Shown: positions 13,958-32,240, numbered from the stretch's first letter. The stretch is DNA of 37,444 nucleotides from a virus (IMGVR_UViG_3300045988_122803:1-37444), one strand, 5' to 3'. Notes: generated by a model from the letters alone, not told the origin. Made by a program: numbers and translations.

Positions 13958-13958
13958 T

Positions 13959-14207: not shown

Positions 14208-14209
14208 AC

Positions 14210-16582: not shown

Positions 16583-16596
16583 AAATTGTCTTTATA
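16583..16596 (+). promoter_or_regulatory. Late-operon motif copy 1 (AAATTGTCTTTATA)
   Basis: 14 nt upstream of ATG 16611, in the 37-bp gap after the sigma-like ORF. Confidence 0.5.
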
Positions 16597-16610
16597 TAAA
16601 TACAGCAAGT

Positions 16611-16931
16611 ATGAACACAGTAATTTTTTTATCTGGCGTTGCCGCGATAGTCGCGTTTAACGCGTTTATAGCCTTCACATTAGGGTGGTTGTTTACCGAG
16701 GTTATAAGGCTTCCGTTAAACTTTAAACCTTTTACGTGCAGGCCGTGCCTTACGTTTTGGTTTACGGTTATACAGGGTGTAATCTTAGCGTTAATTCTTA
16801 CGCCGTATTTTCCCTGGGCCGAAAATCTGCAGGTAAGTACTGTAATCCGTTTCGGGCTTATCGGGGTGGGAGTTCTGACAGGACTTATAAACTTTTTATA
16901 CATAAAACTAAAATTTAAAATCTATGACTAA
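16611..16931 (+). CDS. Membrane protein with 3 TM helices (holin candidate)
   Basis: 106 aa. Hydrophobic segments at about aa 5-28, 45-66 and 78-98; charged C-terminus KLKFKIYD. First gene behind late motif copy 1. Confidence 0.5.
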   Translation: MNTVIFLSGVAAIVAFNAFIAFTLGWLFTEVIRLPLNFKPFTCRPCLTFWFTVIQGVILALILTPYFPWAENLQVSTVIRFGLIGVGVLTGLINFLYIKLKFKIYD

Positions 16932-17433
16932 AGCAAAAACGAAAGGGCCGGATTACGGTAATGTAACACCCGCCCTGATCGGGCAGGTTAGGAAAGTAAT
17001 CGCCGACGGAGCCCGACACCATTATAGCGTATCGAAGGTGTACGGGGCGTATAATGCAGTTTTCGGCAAGAAGGACACGCCGCAGACGTGCAGTAGTTGT
17101 TTACGTAACCGGGTACGCGAGTTGTGCAAATGGCTGGAGGGGTATGAAAAGCACAGCGAAAACGCCGCGCCGCAGTATGACGATCCGGCCGCACCTGGTT
17201 TTATTGAGCCTGCAAATGGCATAGTACGCTATCCGATGGCAGAGGGAATTCCTTTCGACTTTTTGCCGGACGAAGGCACGGCCGTAAAGGGCTCTGTTAT
17301 CCGGGCGGACGGGTCTAAAGTCAGGCCGGGAACGTATATCACCGCGGAGGGTTTAAAGATTGTAGTACAGCCCGGCGGCAGAGCGAACATTAAGGAAGAC
17401 CCGGACGATAACCACACTAACGAGTTATTGTAA
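16924..17433 (+). CDS. Hypothetical protein (169 aa)
   Basis: Overlaps both neighbours (8 nt upstream, TAATG downstream). No motif recognised. Confidence 0.5.
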   Translation: MTKAKTKGPDYGNVTPALIGQVRKVIADGARHHYSVSKVYGAYNAVFGKKDTPQTCSSCLRNRVRELCKWLEGYEKHSENAAPQYDDPAAPGFIEPANGIVRYPMAEGIPFDFLPDEGTAVKGSVIRADGSKVRPGTYITAEGLKIVVQPGGRANIKEDPDDNHTNELL

Positions 17434-17957
17434 TGTCTTTAACGGGGAATCAGTTCTGGCGGCTTCGCACCAAACACGGACGCGATAAGCTATTCAGCGA
17501 CGCAGAAACGCTGTGGCGCGAAGCCTGCCTTTATTTTGACTGGTGCGATCGACACCCGCTTAAAAAGGCCGAACTGGTAAAGTATAAAGGCGCGTACGAA
17601 GAGGCGGGAGTGACATTAGCCAGGGCGTATACCGTGGACGGCCTTACCCGGTATCTTGGTGTGTCCGGCAGTTATTTCAGGACTGCAAAATCGCGTCTCC
17701 GCGAAAAAATAGAAAGAGGAGGGGCGGCCTTATCCGAAATTAGTCTACTGGAAACGATAGAATTAATAGAGCAGACTGTACGTACGCAGCAAATCGAGGG
17801 CGCCGCCGCCGGTATTTTTTCTGCCGGTCTGGTTGCGCGTCTTAACGGCCTCGCAGAGAATACAAACGTTACAAACGCCGGAGAAGCCGTACTTCGCGTA
17901 ACGGTCCGCGATCAGGAAACAGCGGATAACTTGGCCTTATTGGATGAATTATTGTAG
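17433..17957 (+). CDS. terS: Terminase small subunit
   Basis: N-terminal NQFWRLRTKHGRDKLFSDAETLWREACLYFDWCD pattern seen in small terminase families. Immediately precedes and overlaps the large terminase gene. Confidence 0.65.
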   Translation: MSLTGNQFWRLRTKHGRDKLFSDAETLWREACLYFDWCDRHPLKKAELVKYKGAYEEAGVTLARAYTVDGLTRYLGVSGSYFRTAKSRLREKIERGGAALSEISLLETIELIEQTVRTQQIEGAAAGIFSAGLVARLNGLAENTNVTNAGEAVLRVTVRDQETADNLALLDELL

Positions 17958-19135
17958 TGGATACGACGAAAGTATATAGCGACCTGTTAGCGGCTTATAT
18001 TAACCCCGAGATACGTATAATAGCCTTAGAGGGGTCTACACGTTCCGGCAAAACGTGGGCCGCTCTGCAATTGCTTAATACGATTATGTACCGGACGAAA
18101 AAACCGCGCCTGATATCGGTAGTGTCCGAAACTCTCCCGCACCTTAAAAGGGGCTGTATACGCGATCACCGGGACATGTTAGAAGCAGACGGCATGTATG
18201 ACCCGAACGCCTGGCATGACACGGACAAGATATACAGGGCCGGTAAAGGGGCTATGGAGTTTTTTGGTGCAGACAGCCCCGGCAAGGTTTTAGGTCCCGC
18301 CCGGGACATTTTATTTGTAAACGAGTGTATTAACATATCGTACGACGTTTGCCGGCATCTGATGGTACGTACTAAGGAAAAAGTAATTTTGGACTATAAC
18401 CCGGCATTCGAGTTTTGGGTAGATAGTAAGATAGCGCCGCGGGCCGACGCGGTAATACTGCACTCTACGTATCTGGATAACGACAAACTTACCGCATCGC
18501 AGATCGCCGAGATCGAGAGTAACCGCGATACAGACCCGGAATGGTGGAAAGTATACGGGCTTGGCGAAAAGGGAAGTAAGCAGGGGTTAATTATCCAGAA
18601 CTGGGATATAGTTACCGACCTGCCCCCGCGCAATACCTGGAAAAAAGCGTATATCGGGCTGGACTGGGGATGGTCCGTACCTTCCGCGATAGAATTGGTC
18701 GTATTAGGCGAAGGCGGCGAAGTGTGGATAGACGAGATAGGATATGCGCCTAACCTGGATAATCCCGAAATAGCTAAAACTATAATAGCTGCCGGCTATA
18801 AGGACTTGGAAATAATCGCCGATCCCGCGGAACCTAAAAGCAAAGCCGAATTACGGAACTTCGGGCTAAACGTTCCGGACGGCATCGTGAAAGATATAGA
18901 TTTGGGCATACGCGTTGTTAACCGGTATAAAAAACATTACACATCCCGGTCGCTCGGGAGCATCGACGAAAACCGCAAATACAGGTATAAGCAGGACATA
19001 GACGGAAATTATACAGGCGCTCCTGTCGATGCCTTTAACCACGCAAAAGACGCGGAACGTTATGTATTCTTAAACCGTCTTAGTAATATTTCGTCCGGGT
19101 TCGATGTAACGGTAGGGTCAGCAGCCCGCAAATAA
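17957..19135 (+). CDS. terL: Terminase large subunit (PBSX/Terminase_3-like)
   Basis: GTG start overlapping the terS stop. Walker A EGSTRSGKTW; ..LFVNEC.. Walker B-like; ILDYNPAFEFW; C-terminal nuclease-like ..HAKDAERY. Confidence 0.85.
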   Translation: MDTTKVYSDLLAAYINPEIRIIALEGSTRSGKTWAALQLLNTIMYRTKKPRLISVVSETLPHLKRGCIRDHRDMLEADGMYDPNAWHDTDKIYRAGKGAMEFFGADSPGKVLGPARDILFVNECINISYDVCRHLMVRTKEKVILDYNPAFEFWVDSKIAPRADAVILHSTYLDNDKLTASQIAEIESNRDTDPEWWKVYGLGEKGSKQGLIIQNWDIVTDLPPRNTWKKAYIGLDWGWSVPSAIELVVLGEGGEVWIDEIGYAPNLDNPEIAKTIIAAGYKDLEIIADPAEPKSKAELRNFGLNVPDGIVKDIDLGIRVVNRYKKHYTSRSLGSIDENRKYRYKQDIDGNYTGAPVDAFNHAKDAERYVFLNRLSNISSGFDVTVGSAARK

Positions 19136-19144
19136 ATCGAGGAA

Positions 19145-19597
19145 ATGGAACAGATAAGCAAAAATTTCAGCATGGCCGAGTTTAGCGCAAGCGCTACGGC
19201 GGCCAGTGCGGGTATTTTAAACGATATACCCGGCAATGTAAAGCCCGCTGTACGGGCGTTAGTGTCAGAACTTTTACAGCCGCTTTGCGATTACGCAGGG
19301 TGGCGCGGTAAGATTAACAGCGGCTACAGGTCTCCGGCCTTAAACGGGCTGGTTGGCGGTGTTGCAACTTCGCAGCATGTCCGGGGGGAGGCGGCCGATG
19401 TGGTATTTTTTAGAAAAGAAGGCGGGAAGACGATATACATTGCGTCCGTCGAAGTGTTGCGCGTGCTTACGGCTTCCGGCCTTAACTTCGATCAGGCAAT
19501 AGCTTATAATGGTTTTGTACACTTATCGTACACTACTGCGAGGCCGAACCGCCGGCAAATACTGTATAACAGTTTTTACACAGGAGGCCGGATATGA
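19145..19597 (+). CDS. Peptidase M15 family cell-wall hydrolase (endolysin)
   Basis: FSMAEF.., INSGYRSPALN, zinc ligands SQHVRGEAADV and FVHLS (H-x6-D ... H). Confidence 0.85.
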   Translation: MEQISKNFSMAEFSASATAASAGILNDIPGNVKPAVRALVSELLQPLCDYAGWRGKINSGYRSPALNGLVGGVATSQHVRGEAADVVFFRKEGGKTIYIASVEVLRVLTASGLNFDQAIAYNGFVHLSYTTARPNRRQILYNSFYTGGRI

Positions 19598-20118
19598 AAC
19601 GCAGGACATATATAGCGCTGGTGATTGCTTCATTTATAGCAGGCGCACTGTTCCGGAAATGCCGGCCGGACGCAACGCCGTTTGAACCTGTAAGGCGCGA
19701 CACGATAGTTACCCTGGATACGGTGTATCCGCCGGTCCCGGAACCGCAAACAGACACGGTATTAAAATACGATACCGTAATACTTCATATAAAGCCCGTA
19801 GACGACATAACTTCTATTGTAGATACTTCCGGCTATACCGGGGATACAATGTCGCAAATAAAGCCCATAAGCGGCGTAATTCTGCCCATTACTCGAAGGA
19901 CGTATAAGACGGAAGATTATATGGCTGTCGTGGAGGGGTATAAAGCGCGTCTGGTTAGTATCGAGCTATACCGGAAAAACGTAACAGTAACGAATACGGT
20001 TGTTAACACACGTCCGCCCCGCTGGGCGTTAACGCTTGGCCCGGGCGTCGGGTATGGCCCGCATGGGATACAGCCCTACATAGGTGCGACCTTTGGGTTT
20101 GTTCTCTGGAGTAAATAA
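19594..20118 (+). CDS. N-terminally membrane-anchored protein (lysis accessory candidate)
   Basis: ATGA-coupled to the endolysin gene. N-terminal TM YIALVIASFIAGALF; Gly/aromatic-rich C-terminus LGPGVGYGPHGIQPYIGATFGFVLWSK. Confidence 0.5.
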   Translation: MKRRTYIALVIASFIAGALFRKCRPDATPFEPVRRDTIVTLDTVYPPVPEPQTDTVLKYDTVILHIKPVDDITSIVDTSGYTGDTMSQIKPISGVILPITRRTYKTEDYMAVVEGYKARLVSIELYRKNVTVTNTVVNTRPPRWALTLGPGVGYGPHGIQPYIGATFGFVLWSK

Positions 20119-20147
20119 AAAAAATATAGCATTTTTGTTATAAAATA

Positions 20148-20179
20148 TTTGGAAGTTTATAGCATAATAGTTATATTTG
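20148..20179 (+). promoter_or_regulatory. Consensus promoter TTTG-N20-TATATTTG for hicA
   Basis: TTTG at 20148-20151 and TATATTTG at 20172-20179, 26 nt upstream of ATG 20205. Confidence 0.55.
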
Positions 20180-20204
20180 TACTGTAAAGTAAAAGTTCTT
20201 TGAT

Positions 20205-20387
20205 ATGAAGTATTCAGAACTGGTTGCGGCTTTAAAGGCCGCGGGGTGCTACATTAAACGAAACGGCGCAAATCACGACATTTGGTACAGCCCGGCTACA
20301 AAACAGGTCTTTCCTGTACCACGTCACGGCAGCCACGAGGTCCCGAAAGGAACCGAAATCAGCATCCGTAAAAAGGCGGGGATTTAA
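20205..20387 (+). CDS. hicA: HicA mRNA-interferase toxin
   Basis: 60 aa. ..LKAAGCYIKRNGANHDIWYSP...VPRHGSHEVPKGTEISIRKKAGI is the canonical HicA/YcfA pattern. Confidence 0.9.
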   Translation: MKYSELVAALKAAGCYIKRNGANHDIWYSPATKQVFPVPRHGSHEVPKGTEISIRKKAGI

Positions 20388-20393
20388 TCCCCG
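20375..20393 (+). terminator. GC-rich hairpin overlapping the hicA stop codon
   Basis: GCGGGGA(20375-20381)/TCCCCGC(20387-20393), 5-nt loop, followed by TTTACTT. Confidence 0.35.
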
Positions 20394-20448
20394 CTTTACT
20401 TAGATCAGGTGCTTTGTTCTTAGACTTTTACTTTAAAATTTAAAAGGT

Positions 20449-20844
20449 ATGAAGGCAACTATTATTATCGAAAAGGCGAAAGACGGTTATTTTTCCTGCT
20501 ATATGCAGGATGAAAAATTCGATTTCGGGTTAATCGGTCACGGCGAAACCGCCGCCGGGGCGAAAAACGACTTATTAGCGGCGTACGAAGAAATAAAAAA
20601 ATTGAAACGGGAAGAAGGCGAGGCCGTCCCCGAATTAAATTTTGAATTTAAGTACGATCTGCAATCTTTTTTCGACTACTTTAAGTTTATAAATGTGTCG
20701 AAACTGGCGGAAGAGGCGGGGATTAATCCGTCCCTATTGCGGCAATATAATTCAGGTTCGGTGAAGGCCGGGCAAAAACAGTACGATAAATTACAGGCAT
20801 GTATACGGCGTATAGGACACGAGTTAATTACCGCTAAGTTTTAA
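20449..20844 (+). CDS. hicB: HicB-family antitoxin with C-terminal DNA-binding region
   Basis: N-terminal MKATIIIEKAKDGYFSCYMQDE...GHGETAAGAKNDLLAAYEEI (HicB fold pattern). C-terminal ..VSKLAEEAGINPSLLRQYNSG.. is HTH-like. Directly downstream of hicA. Confidence 0.75.
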   Translation: MKATIIIEKAKDGYFSCYMQDEKFDFGLIGHGETAAGAKNDLLAAYEEIKKLKREEGEAVPELNFEFKYDLQSFFDYFKFINVSKLAEEAGINPSLLRQYNSGSVKAGQKQYDKLQACIRRIGHELITAKF

Positions 20845-20890
20845 TATCCCAACGCCGTGAGGCGTTAATACTTTTACTTTACAAAAGAAG

Positions 20891-20919
20891 GAGCCGTCCA
20901 CGAATGGGCGGCTTTTTTT
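20891..20919. terminator. Strong rho-independent terminator between convergent hicB and the 20921-21259 gene
   Basis: AGCCGTCCA/TGGGCGGCT stem (one G-U pair), CGAA loop, followed by T8 (20912-20919). A second small hairpin AACGCC-GTGA-GGCGTT lies at 20851-20866. Confidence 0.75.
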
Positions 20920-20920
20920 T

Positions 20921-21259
20921 CTAGTAGACACCGGGCGGCTCCCGTGTAGGACACCCTCGTGTTTTGCATATCTGAATTATTAATAGTTCTTTATCCAGTT
21001 CTAACCTATTATTTTTTTGGGTTAGGTCTAAATTACGTTTTTGCTCTTCCCGGAGTTCTTTATACAAAGCATCTACTTTCGCGTCCCGGTTGGCTAAACG
21101 CGTTTCGTATCGGTCTATCTGCTTTTCGTGTACGGCAATCTCGGCATCTTTCGCGCTTGCATTCTCTTTCCGGGCATAGGCTTTTCGGTTTATCAGCCAG
21201 TTAAAAAACTCGCGTCCGCCCAAAGATGCGAGTATTGCGGCTATTACGGTCCAGTCCAT
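20921..21259 (-). CDS. Membrane-anchored coiled-coil protein (112 aa)
   Basis: N-terminal TM WTVIAAILASLGG, then a long charged heptad-like region (..IDRYETRLANRDAKVDALYKELREEQKRNLDL..). Last gene of the inverted block. Confidence 0.5.
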   Translation of the reverse strand: MDWTVIAAILASLGGREFFNWLINRKAYARKENASAKDAEIAVHEKQIDRYETRLANRDAKVDALYKELREEQKRNLDLTQKNNRLELDKELLIIQICKTRGCPTREPPGVY

Positions 21260-21273
21260 TTTTTTTTAAAAGT

Positions 21274-21813
21274 TTAGGAGGGAATGTATATGCCGGCATC
21301 AAACGGGCTAACGGCAGAGCCGTTGCCGTCGTCCCATTCGGGGCCACATCCGCAGCCCCGGCCGGGCTTCCACAGGGGGTAAAGCGTTTTACAGCTACAA
21401 AGGTACTCTATTAAGTCCCGGGCGAGTTCTTCGGCGTCGTCCTTAATCCAGCGGCGAAGCTGGGCTATGTCGTTTATAGTTACTGCGTCGCTGTTTTCGC
21501 TGTTACGCAGCGTTACGCCTTTGTTTACAATGCTAGCCCAATGAAACGGAATACCCTGATACACAGCGTAAAATGATAGAGAGGGTGCGATTTTTAACAG
21601 TAACGCCTGATTAGCCGGCGTTATCGTGTCGTTACCTAGGCTGGCCGATTTTATCTGGTCTTTTAGTTCGTCGGTTAACGGCTTGCCTAATATGCGCTCT
21701 ATATACATCTTTTGCGCAATGTTTATGTACGGTACGAATTTAGATATTATCGTATCTTCTTTTATCGGCCCGTTTTCCTTAAATAGTTCTTCGTTAATTA
21801 ATACTACGTCCAT
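21274..21813 (-). CDS. Hypothetical virion-module protein (possible head-tail adaptor)
   Basis: 179 aa, 13 nt downstream of the portal gene on the same strand. The role is inferred from position only. Confidence 0.45.
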   Translation of the reverse strand: MDVVLINEELFKENGPIKEDTIISKFVPYINIAQKMYIERILGKPLTDELKDQIKSASLGNDTITPANQALLLKIAPSLSFYAVYQGIPFHWASIVNKGVTLRNSENSDAVTINDIAQLRRWIKDDAEELARDLIEYLCSCKTLYPLWKPGRGCGCGPEWDDGNGSAVSPFDAGIYIPS

Positions 21814-21825
21814 AATATATTTTTT

Positions 21826-23049
21826 TTAAAATGCCTTAACGGATAACATACGCTTTAACAACCGGATTACCGCGTTACCTTTTTTCGACAGAGTGGTAGT
21901 TTTTTCGCCGGCCTGCTCGTCTATCTGTTCGTATTCGGTGTCCTGTATTTTAGGCAATACGTCCAGATCGTCTATAACCAGTTCTCCGGTACGGTTTATC
22001 TTAGTAAAAATGTTAAGTTTATCTAGTATCTTGCGTCGTAGCTTTTCGATAACCGTGTAGTTATAAAGTACATACGCGTCGATTATTTCAGCGGCGTTCC
22101 CGCTTAGGTTTCCCGATCCGGATACACCTGCCAGCGTAGGGCTGCTTAAACGGTGCGCGCTTATAATTTTTTGGAACACTATACTTTCGACGTTATTGTA
22201 AATATCCGCGTTGGCGCTGGCATTAAACGGTGTTATACCCGGCTTAACGGCGTCATTCTCTCCCCACAGGATAACAATAGCCGATGCCCCCTTAGCGCCG
22301 GCGAAAGCGTTTTCCATTTTCCGTTGGAACTCCGCTTTCTTTTCATCCGACGGATTATTAGGCATGTTAATAACGACAGACGGCGTAAAGCCGTTGTCTA
22401 CGCTGTTGTTATAGAACAGGCCTAGGGCGCCGTCCGCTTTAACATACTCGATTGCCGGGTAATAACCCGGGACACAATAGAAATCGAGGCCCGGCGTATA
22501 ATCCCAGTGGTAGAACAGGTAAGCGACGCCCCTTTTTGCCTTGTTTACACTTCCGGGCCATACTGGGAGTTCTAGGGGTTTATTCTTTCCGCTCGTTTTC
22601 GTCCAGTCTTTCGAGATGCGGAATGTTTCGGGTTTTCCTGTTTCGGTAATTTCTCCGATCCGGACTTGGCTAAAGTCCTGATGAAAAACCGAAACGGTCG
22701 TACTGCCTTTATTTACTATTATCTGTAAATAGAAGCCGCCGAAAGTTTTGTAATCTTTAGCGACTTTTTCTATTAAGTCGTCCCAGCTTTCATCCGCGTT
22801 TGGTACGCCGACATATTTTTTAGCTGTGTTGCTGTCGCGGACGCCTTTACCGCAAATATATGTTACCGTACTCTCTATTATAGAGGCGTTTACTGGGCTT
22901 TTACCGTTGTGGGCTATAATTTCCTGGGGGAAAAGGTTCTTATCTCCGAACGCCACCCAGCCGGCACGGTTTAGCGATAGTTTAGGATAAGCCGGCTTAT
23001 CGTCGGACGCACGTAGGTTTATAACCGAGTATGTTTGTATTTCTTCCAT
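21826..23049 (-). CDS. Portal protein
   Basis: 407 aa. Core pattern ..FTPSVVINMPNNPSDEKKAEFQRKMENAFAGAKGASAIVILWGEN.. and ..ISAHRLSSPTLAGVSGSGNLSGNAAEI.. resembles the Phage_portal family. No other portal-sized candidate in the element. Confidence 0.65.
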   Translation of the reverse strand: MEEIQTYSVINLRASDDKPAYPKLSLNRAGWVAFGDKNLFPQEIIAHNGKSPVNASIIESTVTYICGKGVRDSNTAKKYVGVPNADESWDDLIEKVAKDYKTFGGFYLQIIVNKGSTTVSVFHQDFSQVRIGEITETGKPETFRISKDWTKTSGKNKPLELPVWPGSVNKAKRGVAYLFYHWDYTPGLDFYCVPGYYPAIEYVKADGALGLFYNNSVDNGFTPSVVINMPNNPSDEKKAEFQRKMENAFAGAKGASAIVILWGENDAVKPGITPFNASANADIYNNVESIVFQKIISAHRLSSPTLAGVSGSGNLSGNAAEIIDAYVLYNYTVIEKLRRKILDKLNIFTKINRTGELVIDDLDVLPKIQDTEYEQIDEQAGEKTTTLSKKGNAVIRLLKRMLSVKAF

Positions 23050-23064
23050 CTTGATATTTTTTCT

Positions 23065-23078
23065 AATAAAGACAAAAA
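23065..23078 (-). promoter_or_regulatory. Late-operon motif copy 3 (minus strand TTTTTGTCTTTATT)
   Basis: Core TTGTCTTTA read on the minus strand, 15 nt upstream of the portal start codon (23049). Confidence 0.45.
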
Positions 23079-23084
23079 GCGGGC

Positions 23085-23098
23085 AAATTGTCTTTAAT
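23085..23098 (+). promoter_or_regulatory. Late-operon motif copy 2 (AAATTGTCTTTAAT)
   Basis: Ends 2 nt before ATG 23101. Confidence 0.5.
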
Positions 23099-23100
23099 GT

Positions 23101-23829
23101 ATGCTTACGATAGAATACAATAACACTAAAGTATTCGTACCCGAAAACTGGGACGATATAACACTAGGCTTTTACGAATCGATTTACACGGAAAAGCCCG
23201 GAACGACGCGCGAACGGGTTAACCTCGTAGCCCGCATCTGCAAAATAGACGCCGACCTGCTTTTAGGCTGGCCGGTAGGGATTTTTAATAAGATCGTCGA
23301 CACGATCGACTTTTTATTTAAAGATAACCCGGCGCCCCCCGATCCGGTCGTAGAGATAGAAGGCGTTAGGTATGTAGTGCCTATCGAGGAAGAACTAAGC
23401 CTAGGCGCCTGGGTCGACGCGGATAATGTGCAGAGAAACGGGGTAAACGTACTTTCTAACATTCTTTCTATCGTTTGCCGGCCGGCGGGCGAGGATTACA
23501 ATTACAGGAACAACGAAACCCGTGCGGCGATGTTCGCGGCGCTTCCGGTATGTAAGGTGCTGGGGGTTCTCGCTTTTTTTTTACACTACAAAACCGTGTT
23601 AGAACGACGTACAAGGGCTTATACGAAGCTGGCGGACCTGGCCGGCCGATTGCCGCGGAGTATACATATTTTGCAAAATCTTGGGGGTGGTATAAAATTA
23701 TCGCGGATTTGGCAGATACTAAGATACTGCGCTTTAATAGTATTACTTCGTTACCGGTTTCGGAAGCTTTTACGTTCCTGCAATACTGTAAAGACAAAGC
23801 CCGCGCGGAAGAAGCGCAGTACAAATTAG
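23101..23829 (+). CDS. Virion-module protein; zero-frame ORF as written, probably frameshifted at a T9 tract
   Basis: The N-terminal 160 aa look protein-like. After T9 (23574-23582) the zero frame turns Arg/Lys-rich and implausible. The -1 frame stays open to 23870 with normal composition (see finding). Confidence 0.5.
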   Translation: MLTIEYNNTKVFVPENWDDITLGFYESIYTEKPGTTRERVNLVARICKIDADLLLGWPVGIFNKIVDTIDFLFKDNPAPPDPVVEIEGVRYVVPIEEELSLGAWVDADNVQRNGVNVLSNILSIVCRPAGEDYNYRNNETRAAMFAALPVCKVLGVLAFFLHYKTVLERRTRAYTKLADLAGRLPRSIHILQNLGGGIKLSRIWQILRYCALIVLLRYRFRKLLRSCNTVKTKPARKKRSTN

Positions 23830-23856
23830 ACAGGAAGTTAGCAAAACATACGAAAA

Positions 23857-24393
23857 ATGCAGATAGTTAATTTTTTCTACGAACTGGCCCGGCAAAATAA
23901 AAGGTTAAAGGGATTTATTTACGGCAAGGGCTACGAAAAAGGGGCGGCGAACGAAGCCCACCCACTCTTATGGTTGGATGACCCGGTTTACGGGCAATCG
24001 GTTAACCAGGCGGTACAATACACTGTTAACGCGGATATCCTGGGTATTCCGAAAAACAACGAAAGCGTATTAGAGGTGCAGACAGCTGCTTTTAATGTAG
24101 GTCTGTCAATCGCCGAAAGGATAAAGCAAACCCGCGCCCACACCGGGTATAGCCTAAACGGTTTTAGTTTCGTGTCGTTACGCGACTACTACGATAATAA
24201 CGCGGCCGGTATTCGTTTTACATACACGATACTACAGGCTAACCCTGCCGACCGTTGCGCCGATGATTTTGACCCGGCTAAGGAGTTCCCGGAAGCCGGC
24301 GCGTTGCCCGATTTTAAAGTAGATAACCCGGACGGATGCGCGATTTTTAGCGATAAAAGCGGACTTCCGGACTTTAAAATAACAATCCAATGA
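23857..24393 (+). CDS. Hypothetical virion-module protein (178 aa)
   Basis: Co-oriented, tightly packed ORF in the morphogenesis operon. Confidence 0.55.
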   Translation: MQIVNFFYELARQNKRLKGFIYGKGYEKGAANEAHPLLWLDDPVYGQSVNQAVQYTVNADILGIPKNNESVLEVQTAAFNVGLSIAERIKQTRAHTGYSLNGFSFVSLRDYYDNNAAGIRFTYTILQANPADRCADDFDPAKEFPEAGALPDFKVDNPDGCAIFSDKSGLPDFKITIQ

Positions 24394-24869
24394 GTAAGGA
24401 AGGTATACAACTAGCTATAAAGAACATCGCGGATGGCCTGTTGTCGCTGGCCTCTGCCGTACTGGGGGATGACCGCGTAGGCGTTAATGAAAAAACGGGC
24501 AGGAACACCCTTCGCGATAGTGCGCTAAACGGGGATTTAGAGGCGATCGTAAGCACGGTTTCGGGCGGAGACCCCGTAATAAAGGCCCTGTTTAACCATT
24601 ACGTTGTATACCTGGAGTGGACGCGTCCCCCGAAATATAAAAGAAAACCGCCTATTGGCGTTTTAAAAAGCTGGGCGGCAAAGAACGGGATTCCGACCGA
24701 CGCCGACACTCTGTACCGGATATCTTATGCGATCTGGCGGGACGGACACAAGGGCCGTCCGATTTTCGCGACGATAGACCGGGAGGCGGACAGGCTGTTT
24801 GACGGGGAGTGGGCCGACAAACTGTATAATGCGATAGTAGAGGATTTAGATGAAATTTTTAATGATTAA
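24390..24869 (+). CDS. Hypothetical virion-module protein (159 aa)
   Basis: ATGA overlap with the upstream ORF; no motif recognised. Confidence 0.55.
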   Translation: MSKEGIQLAIKNIADGLLSLASAVLGDDRVGVNEKTGRNTLRDSALNGDLEAIVSTVSGGDPVIKALFNHYVVYLEWTRPPKYKRKPPIGVLKSWAAKNGIPTDADTLYRISYAIWRDGHKGRPIFATIDREADRLFDGEWADKLYNAIVEDLDEIFND

Positions 24870-24874
24870 CAGAA

Positions 24875-26488: not shown

Positions 26489-29156
26489 CATAGAGTTATA
26501 TATAAACCGGAAATTATGCGATACAGACGACGCCTTTGGTGTGCGTCTTAACCGGCAGTTACTAAGCCCCGGCGAACTTAATACGAAAGATGCACAATAC
26601 AGTTATAGTATTACACTGCCGCCCACATCTAACAATCTTAATGTCTTTAATCTTGCCGGAATCGAAGAGACAAAAGATAAGTTTAACCGCGAATATAGTG
26701 CCGAACTTATTATAAACGGCGTTCGGGTGTTTTCCGGAAATTTCCGGCTTTCCGAGGTTTCCGATACACAGTATAAAGGGAACTTATACGTACCTGCACA
26801 AAAAAGCGTTAAAGACGTATTCGGGGGGATAAAGCTAAGCGAAATTCCGGAGTACTATATAAAATTCGGGGATTTCGCAGAATACATAAGCCAATACAAC
26901 ACCCTTGCCCGGTCTGGTCCGCAGGCCGCTATTTTTCCGTATGTGCTGTACGGATTACTCCCTAAAGTGCCGATTTCGGAAGATAATTACTCGGACCGAA
27001 ACGTATGGGACGACAGCGTATTAACCGGTATTACGGATTTTTCGCCTTCTATTAACGTTCTTCTTTTGTTAGAGCATATATTTAAAAGCAAAGGATACGA
27101 TCTGTACGGCTCCGCTTTTTCCGATAAGAGGCTAAGCGGAATATACATGAGCTACAGGAATGCGGCCGACTACGAGCAGCCGTGGAACTACGGCGAACTG
27201 GCTAAAATACATATCTCGGGTTCCTGGTCGAACCGGTACAACAGGAACGAGGCAGGAGATACGCAGCAACTTGAAAGGGGGGTGTACGAAACCTACGGCG
27301 ATGATGAAGAGCTATACGCCTGCAATTTATTCGATTGTACGAACGCGAAAATAAATATTATCAGTGACCCCGGGAAAAATGTATCGAACGTACGCCGGTC
27401 TTTATCCGGCCGGGACTGGTATTTAAGCCAAATCCGGATACCGGCGTCCGGATACTATAAAATCCGGTTAAACGCTAATGTGCAGTTAGAAAATGTACAA
27501 TGGACTGGCTACGACGACACGACTAAGGTACGTTTTATCGGCGCGTACGGCCCTACACGCGGTCTGACAGGCATAAAAACGGCAATTAAATTATTGCGGG
27601 ATTGGGGTACAGGGGATTTTAATATAGGGGGTTCTGAAATGGACGGTACTCTATACCGGGATAACCTGCCGCAAGACAGCAACACATTACCGCGTTATTA
27701 CCCTTACTACGATAGCGAGTCCGGGATGATTAACTTTGTAGATAAGGCACAAAATAAAAACTATTTGTGTGGTTTTCAATGGGGTAAGAAAACGAATAAA
27801 GACGTTAACCCGTTGGATTCTTCCACCGGCTTAGCACAAATAAATGTCGGGAAACCCGCCTTTTCCTGGGATAGTTCCCTTTCGAGAACGGAGATAAGCC
27901 GGATAGCGATAAATAACCCTAACGGGTATATGAAATACGGAGTACCGGACGAAGGGGGTACAGAGCAACCTGTTTGGACGTCTACTACAAAATTTATAAG
28001 CGACCTGAAAAACTCCCCGCGGAATTATGCGAGGCGCGGATTTTTCGAAGGTTCCGCGGCAAATAAGGATTACAGCGCGGACGGGGTTTTAAACTGCGTG
28101 GCATGGCTAAACGCGGGAGAGCTTTTAACTCTTGCGGACGTATCGAACAAGGGGGTTATAATCGATCTAAGGGGTGTCCGGGGGTGGGTATCTAAAAAAG
28201 TTACTTTCGATCTGGAAATTACCCCTTTCCGGAAAAATGAAGACTGGTTAAAAATAGACGAGACGGGAACGGGCCGGGCGGCGATGGACTGGAGTGACCC
28301 TGTTAACTTCGATATAAACCGCATTAACTTAACAGGCTTTCTCCCGGCAGATGTTAAAACGGACGATTTTATAGAAAATTTTTGTAAGGCGTTTAACTTA
28401 CGTCTCTCCCAGGTCGACGACAAAGCCTTTAGCCTGGATGTAAAACAGACAAAAGCTACGAGTAACTTATATATTAACCTGGATAACCTAACGTCTACGC
28501 ACGACCGGTCTAATTTGCCGCTCGGCTTACCATCCCGCTATAAGCTAGGATTTACTGTAGATACGGAAGAAGAAGGATACATAGCCAGCGGGGAGGACGA
28601 CGGGGGCGGTGAGTTTAAGACGGGTGTTGCCGAGGAAAAAACCGTCGAGCAAAAAAGTAATTTTTCTTACAACTGGTTTAAGGATATAATTAAACGGCAG
28701 CAAAACAAAGATATTATAATCCCCCTTCCGGTTATTTCGAAGCACGAAGTGTGGACTAACGAACTATCTTACCCCGAGGCGATGTTAAAGAGGTATACGG
28801 ACCTGCCGGTACGTTTTTGGTATTACGATGGTCTGTTAAACGACCTGGGCGCGGAGTTTACGTTTAACGGCCGCAAATTATCGGTAGCAAAAGTTTCTAA
28901 CGAACTGGCCGGGATGAGCATACTTAACTACAAAAACAAGAGGCTTACGATATTAGATAACTTTTTTACAATACTCATTAACGGCAGTTCGCACTATACC
29001 GAGGTTGAGGGCTATCTAACAGCGGAGCAATACGAGGCTTTTAACGGCGTCATTATGGCAATGTTTAACGGGGACATTTACTACGTAGCCGAGTTGTCCG
29101 GATACGACCCTACCGGCCGGAATAAAACAAAAATTAAACTAATACGGAAAATATGA
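26481..29156 (+). CDS. Large structural protein (891 aa), tail/baseplate-like by size and position
   Basis: Long beta-rich ORF immediately upstream of the tape-measure-like gene. Role inferred from size and context only. Confidence 0.55.
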   Translation: MTNIELYINRKLCDTDDAFGVRLNRQLLSPGELNTKDAQYSYSITLPPTSNNLNVFNLAGIEETKDKFNREYSAELIINGVRVFSGNFRLSEVSDTQYKGNLYVPAQKSVKDVFGGIKLSEIPEYYIKFGDFAEYISQYNTLARSGPQAAIFPYVLYGLLPKVPISEDNYSDRNVWDDSVLTGITDFSPSINVLLLLEHIFKSKGYDLYGSAFSDKRLSGIYMSYRNAADYEQPWNYGELAKIHISGSWSNRYNRNEAGDTQQLERGVYETYGDDEELYACNLFDCTNAKINIISDPGKNVSNVRRSLSGRDWYLSQIRIPASGYYKIRLNANVQLENVQWTGYDDTTKVRFIGAYGPTRGLTGIKTAIKLLRDWGTGDFNIGGSEMDGTLYRDNLPQDSNTLPRYYPYYDSESGMINFVDKAQNKNYLCGFQWGKKTNKDVNPLDSSTGLAQINVGKPAFSWDSSLSRTEISRIAINNPNGYMKYGVPDEGGTEQPVWTSTTKFISDLKNSPRNYARRGFFEGSAANKDYSADGVLNCVAWLNAGELLTLADVSNKGVIIDLRGVRGWVSKKVTFDLEITPFRKNEDWLKIDETGTGRAAMDWSDPVNFDINRINLTGFLPADVKTDDFIENFCKAFNLRLSQVDDKAFSLDVKQTKATSNLYINLDNLTSTHDRSNLPLGLPSRYKLGFTVDTEEEGYIASGEDDGGGEFKTGVAEEKTVEQKSNFSYNWFKDIIKRQQNKDIIIPLPVISKHEVWTNELSYPEAMLKRYTDLPVRFWYYDGLLNDLGAEFTFNGRKLSVAKVSNELAGMSILNYKNKRLTILDNFFTILINGSSHYTEVEGYLTAEQYEAFNGVIMAMFNGDIYYVAELSGYDPTGRNKTKIKLIRKI

Positions 29157-32100
29157 CAACCGGGAAGAAAGAATACACCATCGTGGTAAACGGTGTAGAA
29201 CAGAGCATAAAAGAGGTTACAAAGTTACGGGACGTAGTAGCGTCTCTGGGCAATACTTTCGATAAGGCAAATCTTTCCGTTGCCGCTTCTACGCGTACAG
29301 CGCATGAACACTCGAAAACTTTGTCCGACGAGGGAAAAGCGGAACAGAAGCTAATTGACACGATAGATAAGGTCGTACGGGCACGTAGCGACGCGAATAA
29401 AGCCCAAATCGAAGCTAACATAGCCGCCCGGGAAGCCCAGCGCGAAATAACGCGCGAAATACAAATCCGGCAACAAGCCGAGGGGAGTATTAAACAAATG
29501 GGTATGCAGTTGTCCGATCTCCGGAACCGGTACGAAAACCTTAGCGGGGCTGAACGGAACGACATTGCGGTAGGAGGGGAATTACTAGCGCAAATACAGG
29601 CTTTAGACGCAGAATACAAAGCCTTGCGGGAAAGTACAGGTAATTTCCGGGATAGCGTAGGTAATTACGAAAAAGCATTAAGCGGGTTAGGAAAGCTAAG
29701 TGATGGCGTAGAGGGGGTTACAAAATCCAGCATGGGACTGGCACAGTCGCTTTTAGGGGTTAATGCCCTTATGAATCTGTTTGGTAATTCGGCTAACGAA
29801 AATGCCGAAAGCGTGCAGAAACTGCAAAAGGTAATAGCCCTTTTATCAATTGCGCAACAGGTAAACGAAAATATACTGCGTTCCGGCATCGTGCAAAATA
29901 AATTGGCGATCGTTACAGATACAATACGTACCGCACAGCTAAAAGCCAAAACCGCGGCCGAAGCAGCGAGTACAAAAGGTACGATTTCCGCAGCAGCCGC
30001 GCAAAAGGTACTTAACGCTGTCGCTTCTGCAAACCCTTACGTAATACTTGCTTTAGCCTTGCTAGGAGTAGGGAGCGCATTAGCCGCGTTCGCTTCCGGT
30101 AGTTCGAAAGCTAAGGTAGAACAGGCGAAATTAAATTTCGAAATTTCTACTACAAACCGGCTGTTAAAGCAGTTAAACCGGGATACGGAACTAGCCGCGT
30201 CTTTAGCCGAGGCGGAGGGTAAGGCAGAAGAGGAAGTTTTAAATATATATCGTAAAGCGGCAAAGGAGCGGACAAAACTAGCAGAGAAGGCATACGACGA
30301 TATTACCGCGAACACGAATGCTACGAAAGAGCAGATAGAAGAGGTTACCAGGCTAAAACAGGAGGCATACGACAACGAACAGGCGCTAAACGACCGGGCG
30401 TCTGTATTAGAGACGAAACGTAGAAAAGAGGCGGCGGATAAGGCTAAAACGCTTGCTAAAGAAAGGGTTAAAGTCGAAATAGAAGCGGTACGCGCCGCGG
30501 AAGACGCTAAAATAAAACTTATCCAGGACGCAAACGAACGGGCGATAAAACAGACGGAAACGACATATAACCGGCAGATAGAGGCGCTACGTAAACGCCT
30601 GTCTACGGAAACTAATTTAACGTTAGAGGCCCGGCAGGCACTTAACGAGCAGATAGTAAGCTTAGAGGCCTTAAAAAACCTGGAATTGCAAAAATTGCAG
30701 GAAGAGCAGGCGGAAAAAACTTTGGAATTGGAACGGCAAGTAGAGGACAGCCGTACCGCCCTTATTGCAGGGGAGAATGACCGGCGAAAGGCCGAGATAA
30801 TGCTACAGTACGATAGGCAGATAGAAGACTACAAAAAACGCCTGGACAAAGAAAAAAGCCTTACCGAAGAGCAGCAACAAGCGATTAAAACACTTATCGA
30901 AAACGCACAGCAAGCACGGGACCGGGAATTGTTAAAACTCGCGGCTGACGAGTTAAAAACACGGGCTGATCTGGAGCTAGCAGCAATAGAGGATATGTTG
31001 TTAAGCGCGGAACGCAAAATCGGCGAAATGACCGTCCGGGATAAAGCATCCGGTTTAATCGATGCGGACGCTACCCGGAAAAATCTCGAGGACACGAATA
31101 AGGCTTTAGACGAATATATAAAGCGCCTTACCGAATATCAGGCCAATTTGACCGCGACGCACAAGGCGGCCTTATCTACTTTGGAAGAGGGTTCTACCGA
31201 GTACGAGGATGAGTTACAAAACTATTCCCGGGCTATGGGGGACACTACAGAACGTATTAAAGCGGCCCAAAAAGAACAGGAAGTAAATACTAAGCAGTCG
31301 GCAAGGGCGCAACTCGATGCTCTCGCAGAATTATTTACAAAAATTAGCGAATATGCTAACGAGACGGTAAAAGGGGTTTCCGCGGTTATGGAAACCTGGA
31401 GCATGGGGCTACAGGTGCAATTGGACGACCTTAACGAACAACTCGACGCAATAAACGAACGATACGAAGAAGCGCAAAAACAACGCGAAGACGCGGTTAA
31501 AAATGTCGAGGACATAGAAGCACAGCTACAGGAAGCAACAGGAGGTACGGCCGAAGCATTAAAAATGCAGTTACAGGATGCTATACACGCCCGGGAAGAT
31601 GCCGCCCGGGAAGAAAAAAGGTTAGCGAAAGAAAAGGAAAAGCTAGAGGCAGATATTGCGAAAAAGGAAAAGCAACAAAAGAGGGCGGAACTTATAACAA
31701 GCATAGCGATGGCAACGGCAGACGTAGCCGCGGCAGTTGCAAAGGCATTAACCGCCGGGCCTGTAATCGGGCAAATAATGGCCGGTATTGTAGCGGCGGC
31801 AGGTGCAATACAGATCGGCATTATGACAAAACAGCTTACAAAACTTGCCAAGGGTGGTGAAATCAAGGGGCCGAGCCACGCCAACGGCGGCGTACCTATC
31901 CTGGTTAACGGCGAATATACACACGAGGCGCAAGGGGGCGAATTTATGGTAAACGATAAGAGTTACAGTGCTAACAAGGCACTTGTAAATTTTATAAACG
32001 ATACTCCGCGGGCGTTAACGGTTGCCGATCTGTTTAACATTGTCCCGGGCGACAGCGATACGCCGGTTATCGTGTCCGATGTAGACCGGTCGGAAGGGGA

Positions 32101-32212
32101 TAGGATTGTAGAGGCTATCGCCGGTATAAGCATAAAACCGGTTGTGGCCGTTACCGATATAATGGACGCGACGGACGAAGTTGTAACCGTACGCGATCTG
32201 GCAGGGTTTTAA
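29153..32212 (+). CDS. Tape-measure-like coiled-coil protein (1019 aa)
   Basis: About 800 aa of Ala/Glu/Lys/Gln-rich coiled coil. Hydrophobic Gly/Ala-rich segment ITSIAMATADVAAAVAKALTAGPVIGQIMAGIVAAAGAIQIGIM. C-terminal globular part with KGGEIKGPSHANGGVPI..EAQGGEF. Confidence 0.55.
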   Translation: MTTGKKEYTIVVNGVEQSIKEVTKLRDVVASLGNTFDKANLSVAASTRTAHEHSKTLSDEGKAEQKLIDTIDKVVRARSDANKAQIEANIAAREAQREITREIQIRQQAEGSIKQMGMQLSDLRNRYENLSGAERNDIAVGGELLAQIQALDAEYKALRESTGNFRDSVGNYEKALSGLGKLSDGVEGVTKSSMGLAQSLLGVNALMNLFGNSANENAESVQKLQKVIALLSIAQQVNENILRSGIVQNKLAIVTDTIRTAQLKAKTAAEAASTKGTISAAAAQKVLNAVASANPYVILALALLGVGSALAAFASGSSKAKVEQAKLNFEISTTNRLLKQLNRDTELAASLAEAEGKAEEEVLNIYRKAAKERTKLAEKAYDDITANTNATKEQIEEVTRLKQEAYDNEQALNDRASVLETKRRKEAADKAKTLAKERVKVEIEAVRAAEDAKIKLIQDANERAIKQTETTYNRQIEALRKRLSTETNLTLEARQALNEQIVSLEALKNLELQKLQEEQAEKTLELERQVEDSRTALIAGENDRRKAEIMLQYDRQIEDYKKRLDKEKSLTEEQQQAIKTLIENAQQARDRELLKLAADELKTRADLELAAIEDMLLSAERKIGEMTVRDKASGLIDADATRKNLEDTNKALDEYIKRLTEYQANLTATHKAALSTLEEGSTEYEDELQNYSRAMGDTTERIKAAQKEQEVNTKQSARAQLDALAELFTKISEYANETVKGVSAVMETWSMGLQVQLDDLNEQLDAINERYEEAQKQREDAVKNVEDIEAQLQEATGGTAEALKMQLQDAIHAREDAAREEKRLAKEKEKLEADIAKKEKQQKRAELITSIAMATADVAAAVAKALTAGPVIGQIMAGIVAAAGAIQIGIMTKQLTKLAKGGEIKGPSHANGGVPILVNGEYTHEAQGGEFMVNDKSYSANKALVNFINDTPRALTVADLFNIVPGDSDTPVIVSDVDRSEGDRIVEAIAGISIKPVVAVTDIMDATDEVVTVRDLAGF

Positions 32213-32226
32213 GACGATTTAGGTTA

Positions 32227-32240
32227 AAATTGTCTTTATA
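32227..32240 (+). promoter_or_regulatory. Late-operon motif copy 4 (AAATTGTCTTTATA)
   Basis: Identical 14-mer to copy 1. Ends 2 nt before ATG 32243. Confidence 0.5.

Follow-up and report, generated by a model that had tools for sequence, protein, structure and literature searches.

What reads the short sequence that recurs at the heads of the late operons of this prophage, and where would transcription begin relative to it? In the window, by which we mean the whole 37,444-nt stretch of viral DNA analysed here, the 12-mer AAATTGTCTTTA occurs exactly three times, always on the plus strand (16583-16594, 23085-23096 and 32227-32238), as the original prediction had it. Shuffled sequence contains 0.03 copies on average, and none of 100 shuffles reaches three. 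Copies 1 and 3 share the 14-mer AAATTGTCTTTATA, which had been noted correctly. The 9-mer core TTGTCTTTA is present five times in the window (mean of 0.25 in shuffles, 0/100 of which reach five). Its two copies beyond the 12-mers both lie on the minus strand: the one at 23067-23075, facing the portal gene, had already been recognized, whereas the one at 23789-23797 had been overlooked.

Motif sites in the window

Four of the core copies stand before late genes:

16586..16594, plus strand: P1 -10 element TTGTCTTTA, predicted late promoter; relatives carry TYRTCTTTA-N4-ATG at the homologous gene
23067..23075, minus strand: P2-left -10 element TTGTCTTTA, predicted late promoter, heading portal, g21274 and g20921
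23088..23096, plus strand: P2-right -10 element TTGTCTTTA, predicted late promoter, 4 nt before the ATG of g23101 (23101)
32230..32238, plus strand: P3 -10 element TTGTCTTTA, predicted late promoter, 4 nt before the ATG of the XkdF-like prohead protease gene (32243)

The P1 operon comprises a small membrane protein gene, g16924, terS, terL and an M15 peptidase gene, that of P2-right runs from g23101 through the tail genes to 32212, and at P3 a major-capsid-like gene comes next after the protease gene. The motif lies 16 nt from the ATG of gene 16611, 17 nt from that of the portal gene (23049) and 4 nt from those of genes 23101 and 32243, which corrects the distances of 14-15 and 2 nt given previously. 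The claim that its copies occupy the only sizeable late gaps is wrong, since the late region also has gaps of 86, 61, 47 and 55 nt without a copy. Its restriction to late genes holds: the lysogeny and early region contains no copy, even with up to two mismatches allowed and the GTCTTT core kept.

Two resemblances we do not count as sites. The core at 23789..23797 (minus strand) runs antisense inside gene 23101-23829 and is taken as a coding-driven lookalike, because it stays TTGTCTTT in the TTATC-type phage L019 and so tracks the protein, not the promoter variant. The near copy ATGTCTTTAA at 17433..17442 (plus strand), at the start of terS, had been put forward as a relative of the motif, but it is a chance resemblance produced by Met-Ser-Leu codons that only this window has; relatives read ATG-GAA-CGA-TTA (M-E-R-L).

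A search of the four sites for the host box (-7 TAnnTTTG, -33 TTTG type) finds none, in agreement with the earlier statement that the motif does not match TAnnTTTG; boxes of this type instead precede g1582, g3675, g3179 and hicA, that is, early, lysogeny and hicA genes. A promoter for the Bacteroidota primary sigma is therefore rejected. An intrinsic terminator is likewise rejected, because the motif sites are not listed by the intrinsic-terminator scan, their stems are A+T-rich and the best palindrome lies between divergent genes, unlike the G+C-rich terminator stem at the end of a unit.

Conservation and concerted variation among relatives

We compared about 35 related prophage contigs: 24 IMG/VR relatives anchored on the portal gene, plus about 12 further loci. 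From them the element T-[T/C]-[G/A]-TCTTTA-N3-Y-ATG emerges, and every relative has it at the head of the same three or four late operons, those beginning with homologues of g16611, g23101, g32243 or g29153, and portal. This conservation supports the earlier proposal of a phage-specific late promoter. The homologue of site 1 abuts the ATG in most relatives, and the fixed spacing of P2-right is kept in all. P3 is kept before the protease homologue in L001-L006, L012 and L017/18, and an equivalent site precedes the 1019-aa tape-measure-like gene in L014, L017 and L034. An arm facing the portal gene is found in 24/24 portal-anchored relatives, 14-26 nt from the portal ATG.

Across the 42 unique plus-strand sites, the 9-mer is always separated from the ATG by 4 nt. 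Counting from the A of the ATG (+1), the base at -1 is a pyrimidine in all 42 (T 34, C 8), a feature found in 25 of the 48 window genes (52%). Position -13 is T in 39/42 sites and -5 is A in 38/42; G (25 sites) or A (17 sites) stands at -11, and -10 and -9 are invariably T and C (42/42 each).

The two variable bases of the motif are uniform at all sites of one phage and differ between phages, giving TTGTC, TCGTC, TTATC and TCATC; the spacing is unchanged in L097, which carries the fourth variant. At its gene heads each genome carries its own 9-mer variant only; none of the other variants is ever found there. This uniformity within phages, together with the difference between them, points to a reader encoded by the phage. 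Window site 1, L031/L032 (25 nt) and the portal gene have an insertion between the motif and the start codon. The motif thus need not touch the ATG, and a promoter fits better than a translation signal.

A sigma-like ORF upstream of site 1

Directly upstream of site 1 lies the ORF that the original prediction had called sigma-like:

15965..16573, plus strand: very diverged ECF-like sigma factor gene (sigma2 + sigma4), 202 aa, proposed reader of the motif

The ORF closes the replication/middle operon and shares 26 nt with the SNF2 helicase gene; along the DNA, SNF2 helicase and the sigma-like ORF are followed by site 1, two small genes, terS and terL. Homologues occupy the same position directly upstream of site 1 in relatives. 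The window protein itself has no match in Pfam or PHROG and none to an NCBIfam sigma model, and ten more distant family members have no Pfam match. Of its close homologues, 6/17 match the sigma70-ECF model TIGR02937 (best 1.7e-6) and 4/17 match PRK12522 (7.2e-7). A family profile matches Mtb SigH at E=0.018, and a deeper profile of 93 sequences, compared with PDB sequences, matches sigma-H 3mzy (4.3e-5) and then SigW, SigH and sigmaE over the full length; the alignments to SigH, SigW and sigmaE cover both domains. Comparison with a single sigmaE sequence by hhalign aligns region 4.2 only.

The AF2 model (pLDDT 72.7) has two helical domains and a disordered linker at 97-118. Its top Foldseek matches are almost all ECF sigmas (SigH, sigmaE, SigL, AlgU, SigW and CnrH), aligned over 170-195 columns with a probability of about 1, and a sigma2 + sigma4 architecture in 202 aa agrees with the ECF (group 4) layout of about 170-220 aa, which lacks regions 1.1 and 3. 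From the profile, NCBIfam and Foldseek results, we conclude that the ORF probably encodes a strongly diverged two-domain ECF-like sigma factor, in line with the earlier suggestion. Assignment to RinA/ArpU is rejected, as no such family appears among the Pfam and NCBIfam matches of 17 members at E up to 10.

Palindromic arms and a candidate -35 element

Inverted repeats at 23067-23096, in the portal/g23101 gap, and at 32209-32238 had escaped the original prediction. They are perfect or near-perfect and have equal arm spacing. The portal/g23101 palindrome (9+12+9 bp) sets two predicted -10 elements back to back, and its left arm, P2-left, lies where the -35 element of P2-right is expected. The left arm of the second repeat is a feature of its own:

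32209..32217, plus strand: P3 candidate -35-like element TTAAGACGA, imperfect left arm

The arms are 12 bp apart in 19/21 unique palindromes, and the spacer sequence is free. The palindromes and 4/7 unique unidirectional sites with a noncoding region share a candidate -35 sequence, AAGAC(G/A)A, at -32 to -26. At P3 its GAC (-30 to -28) is noncoding, just past the stop codon of gene 29153-32212, and GACG(A/G) is found at the matching post-stop position at 4/7 unique unidirectional sites with a noncoding stretch. At site 1 the corresponding region codes for the C-terminus of the sigma-like protein. From AAGAC to GTC the distance is 17 bp, which is 2-3 bp less than from GGAAC to GTC in sigmaE promoters, and the spacer is about 14 bp, whereas a GGAAC-like element of an ECF-type promoter would stand 16-18 bp upstream of the -10 block. 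An ECF sigma usually depends on a good -35 element, and these sites show no clearly defined one; the -35 element of the late promoters, including TTAAGACGA, is uncertain.

An arm spacing of 12 bp places the half-site centres 21 bp apart, which also fits a dimeric DNA-binding protein. The 30-bp palindrome would then be the operator of a late activator or repressor, with half-sites two helical turns apart and the real promoters elsewhere or overlapping. The near-perfect symmetry of both repeats, the constancy of the arm spacing over a free spacer and the joint variation of both arms between phages speak for such an operator. However, a recognizable left arm is missing from site 1 and from about half of the unidirectional sites. 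Only the right arm is universal, with its 4 nt to the ATG and its pyrimidine at -1, neither of which an operator requires, and the left arm of window site 3 reads GACGA where a symmetric dimer would be expected to bind GACAA. The sites carry no host-type -7 box, and the 51-bp divergent gap is too small for separate promoters. We thus consider an operator unlikely.

Still less probable is an element acting in RNA, a hairpin or protein site 5' of the start codon that governs translation or processing of read-through late transcripts. The fixed spacing to the AUG would suit it, and hairpins are predicted at site 2 (-6.7 kcal/mol, z = -2.2) and site 3 (-9.4 kcal/mol, z = -3.3), but site 1 has none (z = -0.6) and an Rfam search returns no match. 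At the divergent site, an mRNA would have to start within the opposite gene to include the two arms, and the AUG is 14-26 nt away from the portal copy and from three variants of site 1. What is conserved is the primary sequence, not base pairing with free sequence.

The proposed reader of the motif and the predicted transcripts

The sigma-like ORF might have another role, and the promoters might be read by a host alternative (ECF) sigma or by the host primary sigma with a phage activator. Bacteroides carry many ECF sigmas with unknown motifs (PMC7366714), and the window ORF fails curated sigma models. We nevertheless give this explanation little credence: the variable bases differ between phages of related Bacteroidales and are uniform per genome, and the sigma-like gene is kept beside site 1. 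Furthermore, the -10 variant predicted from the sigma sequence class is found in 4/4 held-out contigs, although the co-variation of sigma clade and variant is inseparable from shared ancestry. A residue-level recognition rule for the variant fails for P0060 and L023. That the motif consists of module-boundary sequences kept by mosaic-phage recombination, with no role in expression, is very improbable even though the sites lie at junctions of functional modules, because such sequences need no fixed 4-nt distance to the ATG, pyrimidine at -1, inverted orientation in the divergent gap or concerted two-base change.

We favour, with a probability of about 0.65, the reading in which late promoters recognized by the prophage's own sigma have this motif as their -10 element, most late operons being transcribed as leaderless mRNAs. 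The conservation, the fixed spacing, the concerted variation, the sigma-like character of the ORF and the lack of host-type boxes are observed; the pairing of sigma and motif, the transcription start, leaderless translation and the double use of the palindrome arms are inferred. The ORF at the end of the replication/middle operon would supply an ECF-like sigma that binds the host RNA polymerase core, and the holoenzyme would initiate at T-[T/C]-[G/A]-T-C-T-T-T-A. The invariant T (-10) and C (-9) would be flipped into sigma2 pockets, as in sigmaE, and phage-specific recognition would depend on the variable bases at -12 and -11.

The motif is so near the start codons that most late operons should yield leaderless mRNAs; given the 4-nt distance and the preceding pyrimidine, transcription should begin at the A of the ATG. 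The earlier idea of a -10-like element producing leaderless or short-leader mRNAs gains support from this arrangement. With that A as +1, G, T and C stand at -11, -10 and -9, as does the GTC of the sigmaE open complex, a fit conditional on the inferred start, and a pyrimidine-purine pair would lie at the predicted start. Leaderless-type features (fixed 4 nt, pyrimidine at -1 and A at +1) are found together in 42/42 sites; the exceptions with a leader are portal, window site 1 and L031/32.

In the window, the A of the g23101 ATG is the predicted start of the P2-right transcript, which would be leaderless, as would the P3 mRNA. Short A-rich leaders of about 12 nt are expected for the portal gene and site 1: the predicted start of P1 is at about 16598-16599 (leader about 12 nt), and P2-left would give a leader of about 13 nt. 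The portal/g23101 gap would hold back-to-back promoters, each arm lying at the expected -35 position of the other promoter. Leaderless ECF promoters start with A (PMC7776599). In B. thetaiotaomicron only about 3.7% of 5' UTRs are shorter than 10 nt (PMC7366714), so a leaderless design is unusual for the Bacteroidales host group, which counts against our reading. The activator or antiterminator site originally offered as an alternative to a -10-like element is less favoured.

Comparison with known systems

T4 late promoters carry TATAAATA at -10, read by gp55, and there, as here, late genes are marked by a phage-specific motif in the -10 region together with a phage sigma-like protein. T4 gp55 is without sigma4 and needs gp33 and the sliding clamp, whereas the prophage protein has a sigma4-like HTH domain.

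ECF (group 4) sigmas such as E. coli sigmaE (PMC6648896, PMC7776599) resemble the phage system in their size of about 200 aa with sigma2 and sigma4, the R-T-C core of the -10 element, T and C at -10 and -9 provided that transcription starts at the A of the ATG, and a pyrimidine-purine pair at the predicted start. The sigmaE consensus is GGAACTT at -35 and GTC at -10, and in the open complex protein pockets hold T-10 and C-9 (PMC6648896). The phage protein differs in being phage-encoded and too diverged for Pfam sigma models, its -10 element extends to the 9-mer TYRTCTTTA, most of its proposed targets abut the start codon, and the candidate -35 is closer by 2-3 bp. No partner anti-sigma gene is identified for it, and autoregulation is not indicated, since the sigma gene has no copy of the motif upstream of it.

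The distant sigma homologue gp36 of phiEco32 serves middle and late transcription from AATGTA centred at -11.5 (PMC12276001) and is, by description, likewise a strongly diverged phage sigma that sends host RNA polymerase to phage promoters mainly through a -10-region motif. Unlike the prophage, phiEco32 is a lytic coliphage, and gp79 is required there as a co-factor; its motif is another, and no fixed abutment of start codons is described for it (PMC12276001). RinA, ArpU and LtrC of temperate Gram-positive phages (PMC3152322) are encoded, as here, just upstream of terS at the replication/packaging boundary and turn on packaging and morphogenesis, but there one promoter serves one long late operon, whereas the prophage would use three or four promoters because its portal module is inverted. 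The -10-adjacent ORFs of Deinococcus-Thermus (PMC12340547) and the leaderless ECF promoters of Actinobacteria (PMC7776599) share a short, constant spacing between -10 element and start codon and a start at the A of the AUG, which here is predicted. Those systems rely on the primary or ECF sigmas of hosts from phyla in which leaderless mRNAs are common, in contrast to a phage system in Bacteroidota.

Leaderless mRNAs are rare in this phylum. Our tentative broader proposal, which we hold to be somewhat doubtful as a whole, is that the entire morphogenesis programme of this prophage family may be leaderless through an unannotated, phage-specific family of ECF-like sigmas. The 30-bp portal palindrome would then be two overlapping promoters, the -10 of each (GTCTT) doubling as the -35-like element (AAGAC) of the opposite one, and the bases at -12 and -11 may give orthogonal sigma-promoter pairs (TTGTC, TCGTC, TTATC and TCATC).

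Gene order and host-type signals

The window is an integrated temperate phage, with its genes in the following order (gNNNNN denotes a window gene by its start position).

Integrase, then a CI-like repressor: first in window order
DUF2800 nuclease, family A DNA polymerase, C5 methylase: after the repressor
VapE-like primase/helicase, VRR-NUC protein, SNF2 helicase: upstream of ORF 15965-16573
15965-16573: 202-aa ORF (product designated gp15965), between the SNF2 helicase and site 1
Small membrane protein, unknown gene, terS, terL, M15 peptidase: downstream of site 1
hicAB-like pair: between the M15 peptidase and the inverted portal block
Inverted block of portal and two genes: reaches to the divergent gap that holds the palindrome (site 2)
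g23101 and tail genes, up to a 1019-aa protein: right of the divergent gap
XkdF-like prohead protease, then a capsid-like protein: behind site 3

Host-type -7 boxes (TAnnTTTG) precede g1582, g3675, g3179 and hicA, and none was found before the late operon heads. Scanning the late region for the sigma-70-type promoter consensus gave 24 sites versus 25.8 expected, and thus no signal. Rfam at gathering thresholds returned no match to known RNA elements, and no tRNA was found.

Two further regions stand out. Behind the VapE-like primase/helicase gene, a 252-nt gap (13957-14210) in which repeated GGTTTTTTGG / CCAAAAAACC units flank an A+T-rich stretch looks like an iteron-type replication origin. 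Between two late operons, 20172-20844 holds a HicA toxin gene (Pfam) and a 131-aa partner; the unit has its own host-type -7 box, TATATTTG, at 20172, and resembles a moron whose expression does not depend on the late programme. Terminator-like hairpins on both sides of the pair, at 20376-20394 (minus strand) and 20851-20866 (plus strand), may mark the limits of the hicAB unit and of the leftward portal operon.

A conserved element abuts late start codons

The 12-mer AAATTGTCTTTA occurs exactly three times in the window, all on the plus strand, at 16583, 23085 and 32227, as the original prediction held; shuffled sequences contain 0.03 copies on average and none of 100 reaches three. Its 9-mer core TTGTCTTTA has five copies versus 0.25 expected. 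That prediction missed that two of the sites are inverted repeats of the same geometry, and it placed the motif in the only sizeable gaps, which is wrong: four gaps in the late region, of 86, 61, 47 and 55 nt, are without it. The repeats and the additional core copies are as follows.

23067-23096: inverted repeat (site 2), TAAAGACAA-N12-TTGTCTTTA
32209-32238: inverted repeat (site 3), TTAAGACGATTT-aggtta-AAATTGTCTTTA
23067-23075, minus strand: extra 9-mer copy, facing the portal gene
23789-23797, minus strand: extra 9-mer copy, inside gene 23101-23829

Site 1 (16586) has a weak left arm only.

Searching 50,697 phage records by tblastn for cultured relatives yielded only a 24% portal match, in Nonlabens phage P12024, and no match to ORF 15965-16573. 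An IMG/VR scan anchored on the portal gave 24 related contigs (portal identity 61-87%), scans anchored on the sigma-like ORF gave 8 further loci, and a GTDB scan gave four: Bacteroides stercorirosoris DSM 26884, a Rikenellaceae MAG, a Salinivirgaceae MAG and one probably mis-binned contig. The B. stercorirosoris prophage (NZ_FQZN01000044.1) is a close relative, with 87% portal identity and TTGTCTTTA sites ahead of its g16611, g23101 and tape-measure homologues. The ORF also has a homologue in Bacteroides nordii, and this and the GTDB relatives identify the hosts as Bacteroidales.

Synteny is kept among the relatives. Every one carries an inverted repeat in the portal/g23101 gap, with the ATG of the g23101 homologue 4 nt past the right arm, and the same element at the same spacing heads the g16611 homologue plus a protease or tape-measure-like gene. 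With the A of the ATG as +1, 42 unique plus-strand sites give the consensus WW-T-T-[T/C]-[G/A]-T-C-T-T-T-A-N-N-g-Y-ATG-G. T at -10 and C at -9 are invariant; T occupies -13 in 39 of the 42, A occupies -5 in 38 and G occupies +4 in 31. Position -12 is T (31/42) or C (10/42), and -11 is G (25/42) or A (17/42). A purine is never found at -1 (T in 34, C in 8); window-wide, a pyrimidine occupies this position in 25 of 48 genes (52%). The portal ATG lies 14-26 nt from the portal-side arm, except in one relative (L005) whose perfect palindrome abuts both genes. Distances of 16 nt at site 1 of the window and 25 nt in two related contigs (L031/L032) indicate that the motif can work away from the ATG.

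The small gene behind site 1 illustrates a practical annotation problem: gene calls in two public contigs (L093:2088-2394 and L095:1518-1850) miss this membrane-protein gene, which starts 4 nt after the motif, and callers may skip it for want of a leader.

The element varies in concert within each phage

Phages fall into classes by their variant of the element, TTGTC, TCGTC or TTATC. A fourth class, TCATC, is represented by the phage of sigma-like homologue P0060 (contig L097), in which the variant TCATCTTTA lies 4 nt ahead of an ATG, with AGACAA upstream (L097:1115-1165). Each genome has one class at every site, both palindrome arms included, and 9-mers of other classes were never found at gene heads within a genome. 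A scan of all IMG/VR for the palindrome pattern returned 56 matches, 19 of them from this phage family, and the arms match in all 19; the remaining matches mostly have mismatched arms and lack a sigma homologue in the fetched stretch, and thus do not suggest that other phage families carry the element. The cis-element is almost certainly real and functional.

Two lookalikes were rejected as sites. The copy at 23789-23797 stays TTGTCTTT even in a phage with TTATC promoters, which marks it as coding-driven. The near copy claimed at the terS start is absent from all relatives and did not hold up under concerted variation.

The joint change of two bases at 3-4 dispersed sites argues for a sequence-specific reader that changes alongside them, and thus for one encoded by the phage.

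The gene upstream of site 1 belongs to a sigma-like family

ORF 15965-16573 itself has no match in Pfam, PHROG or NCBIfam. It has 17 close homologues, and a search of 1.8 billion representatives puts its family at 347 clusters (50% identity), annotated as 'hypothetical' at most where any source names it. A 17-sequence profile matched the Mtb ECF sigma factor SigH over both domains (E=0.018). In a PDB-wide search, a 93-sequence profile matched sigma-H (3mzy, 4.3e-5), followed by SigW, SigH, sigmaE and SigE, in nearly always full-length alignments. This search was more informative than hhalign of the family against a single sigmaE sequence, which aligned the region 4.2 HTH alone. TIGR02937 (sigma70-ECF) is matched by 6 of the 17 members (best 1.7e-6). 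The AlphaFold model (pLDDT 72.7) comprises two helical domains joined by a disordered linker, and its PDB matches are almost all ECF sigmas, with a probability of about 1. By profile and predicted fold, the family is sigma-like, which bears out the original prediction for this ORF. Like RinA/ArpU-type late regulators, ORF 15965-16573 lies upstream of terS (PMC3152322); its family has no match to the RinA or ArpU families.

The sigma-like gene is directly upstream of site 1 in relatives, and in several its stop codon is a few nucleotides from the motif or overlaps it. It is only 30-73% identical among relatives, far more diverged than its neighbours. A distant 271-aa member (P0100, in L096:281-4732) comes directly after the gene for a DNA polymerase III beta clamp, ahead of PcfK and PcfJ genes, a context indicating that the family also occurs in other mobile elements.

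Sigma sequences group by -10 class. When the variant was predicted from the sigma class before contigs were fetched, all four held-out cases were correct (TTATC for P0016, TCGTC for P0015, TTGTC for P0005 and P0006), with the ATG 4 nt past the motif in each. Prediction and phylogeny are not independent: in each of the trees built for portal, g23101, terL and sigma, the classes are largely set apart, so co-evolution is inseparable from ancestry. The trees were intended to show the variant tracking sigma over the structural genes and did not do so. A residue-level code (YR..IN for TTGTC, YR..LD for TCGTC, YH for TTATC) was correct for four of four held-out sequences and was rejected, failing for L023 and for P0060, whose TCATC class goes with TYR..LLH. 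Adjacency, fold, geometry and concerted change all speak for the sigma-promoter link; co-variation is no proof of it.

Proposed promoter geometry and possible role of the second arm

The E. coli sigmaE promoter has a -35 GGAACTT and a -10 GTC (PMC6648896). In the phage element, counted from the A of the ATG as +1, position -11 is G or A and is followed by the T and C of -10 and -9. ECF promoters have a pyrimidine-purine pair at the start, and leaderless ones start with A (PMC7776599); taking the C as the flipped base puts the A of the ATG at the '-1' position, always preceded by a pyrimidine. Coding conservation begins at codon 2 (M-V-T-I-E-Y-N in g23101, M-E-T-x-I-F-L in g16611), which places the predicted transcript start at or within a few nucleotides of the ATG, and leaderless mRNAs are thus predicted for most late operons. 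We infer both the start position and leaderless translation. The best-supported mechanism, to which we assign a probability of about 0.65, is that gp15965 reads the motif as the -10 element of a promoter and that transcription starts at the ATG or close to it.

The left arm lies at -34 to -26 from the predicted right-hand start, the expected -35 position. Of 21 unique divergent gaps, 19 have a 12-bp spacer between the arms, one a 13-bp and one a 14-bp spacer, and the spacer sequence is free. Among unique unidirectional sites with a noncoding stretch, GACG(A/G) comes after the upstream stop codon in 4 of 7, which represent two lineages and two types of site, and the left arm of site 3 has GACGA versus GACAA in the exact complement. 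The candidate -35 has a GAC-to-GTC distance of 17 bp, 2-3 bp shorter than in sigmaE promoters. The C-terminal codons of the sigma gene confound this region at site 1, and a 'TTTRCTATC' / 'AGTCGAT' box there was rejected as a -35 element, being C-terminal coding sequence (LLS..VVDF).

On these positions we favour AAGAC(R)A as a putative -35-like element; each of the two -10 elements in the divergent gap would then also serve as -35 for the promoter on the other strand. The main rival is a dimeric regulator binding both arms. RNA hairpins are predicted at site 2 (-6.7 kcal/mol) and site 3 (-9.4 kcal/mol) and none at site 1; at the divergent site, neither mRNA would contain both arms.

Implications for late expression in Bacteroidales prophages

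T4 gp55 is a phage sigma that redirects host polymerase in the late switch. In phiEco32, the phage sigma gp36 uses promoters with AATGTA at -11.5 (PMC12276001). Like both, gp15965 would redirect the host polymerase to the late promoters. Among B. thetaiotaomicron 5' UTRs, about 3.7% are shorter than 10 nt (PMC7366714), a rarity that makes the leaderless prediction stand out; in Deinococcus-Thermus, an ORF-adjacent -10 element giving leaderless mRNAs is established (PMC12340547).

Literature searches for a phage-specific late promoter of a Bacteroides prophage returned none. To our knowledge, late-gene timing in temperate Bacteroidales phages is little described. New on this reading are four features: a family of sigma-like proteins, hitherto unannotated, in prophages of Bacteroidales; a -10 element of 9 bp in which two positions are specific to the phage; a bidirectional promoter compacted into a palindrome; and systematic start-codon abutment, which implies leaderless late mRNAs where the phylum has few. 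For 5'-end mapping, B. stercorirosoris DSM 26884 offers a practical lysogen in culture.

If the proposed mechanism is true, it would provide a readable promoter signature marking the late operons of this phage family, a name for a 'hypothetical' protein family, and a natural set of 3-4 apparently orthogonal sigma-promoter pairs working in Bacteroides, possibly useful as genetic parts. It would also clearly exemplify leaderless expression in a phylum that seldom shows it and that initiates translation without Shine-Dalgarno pairing.
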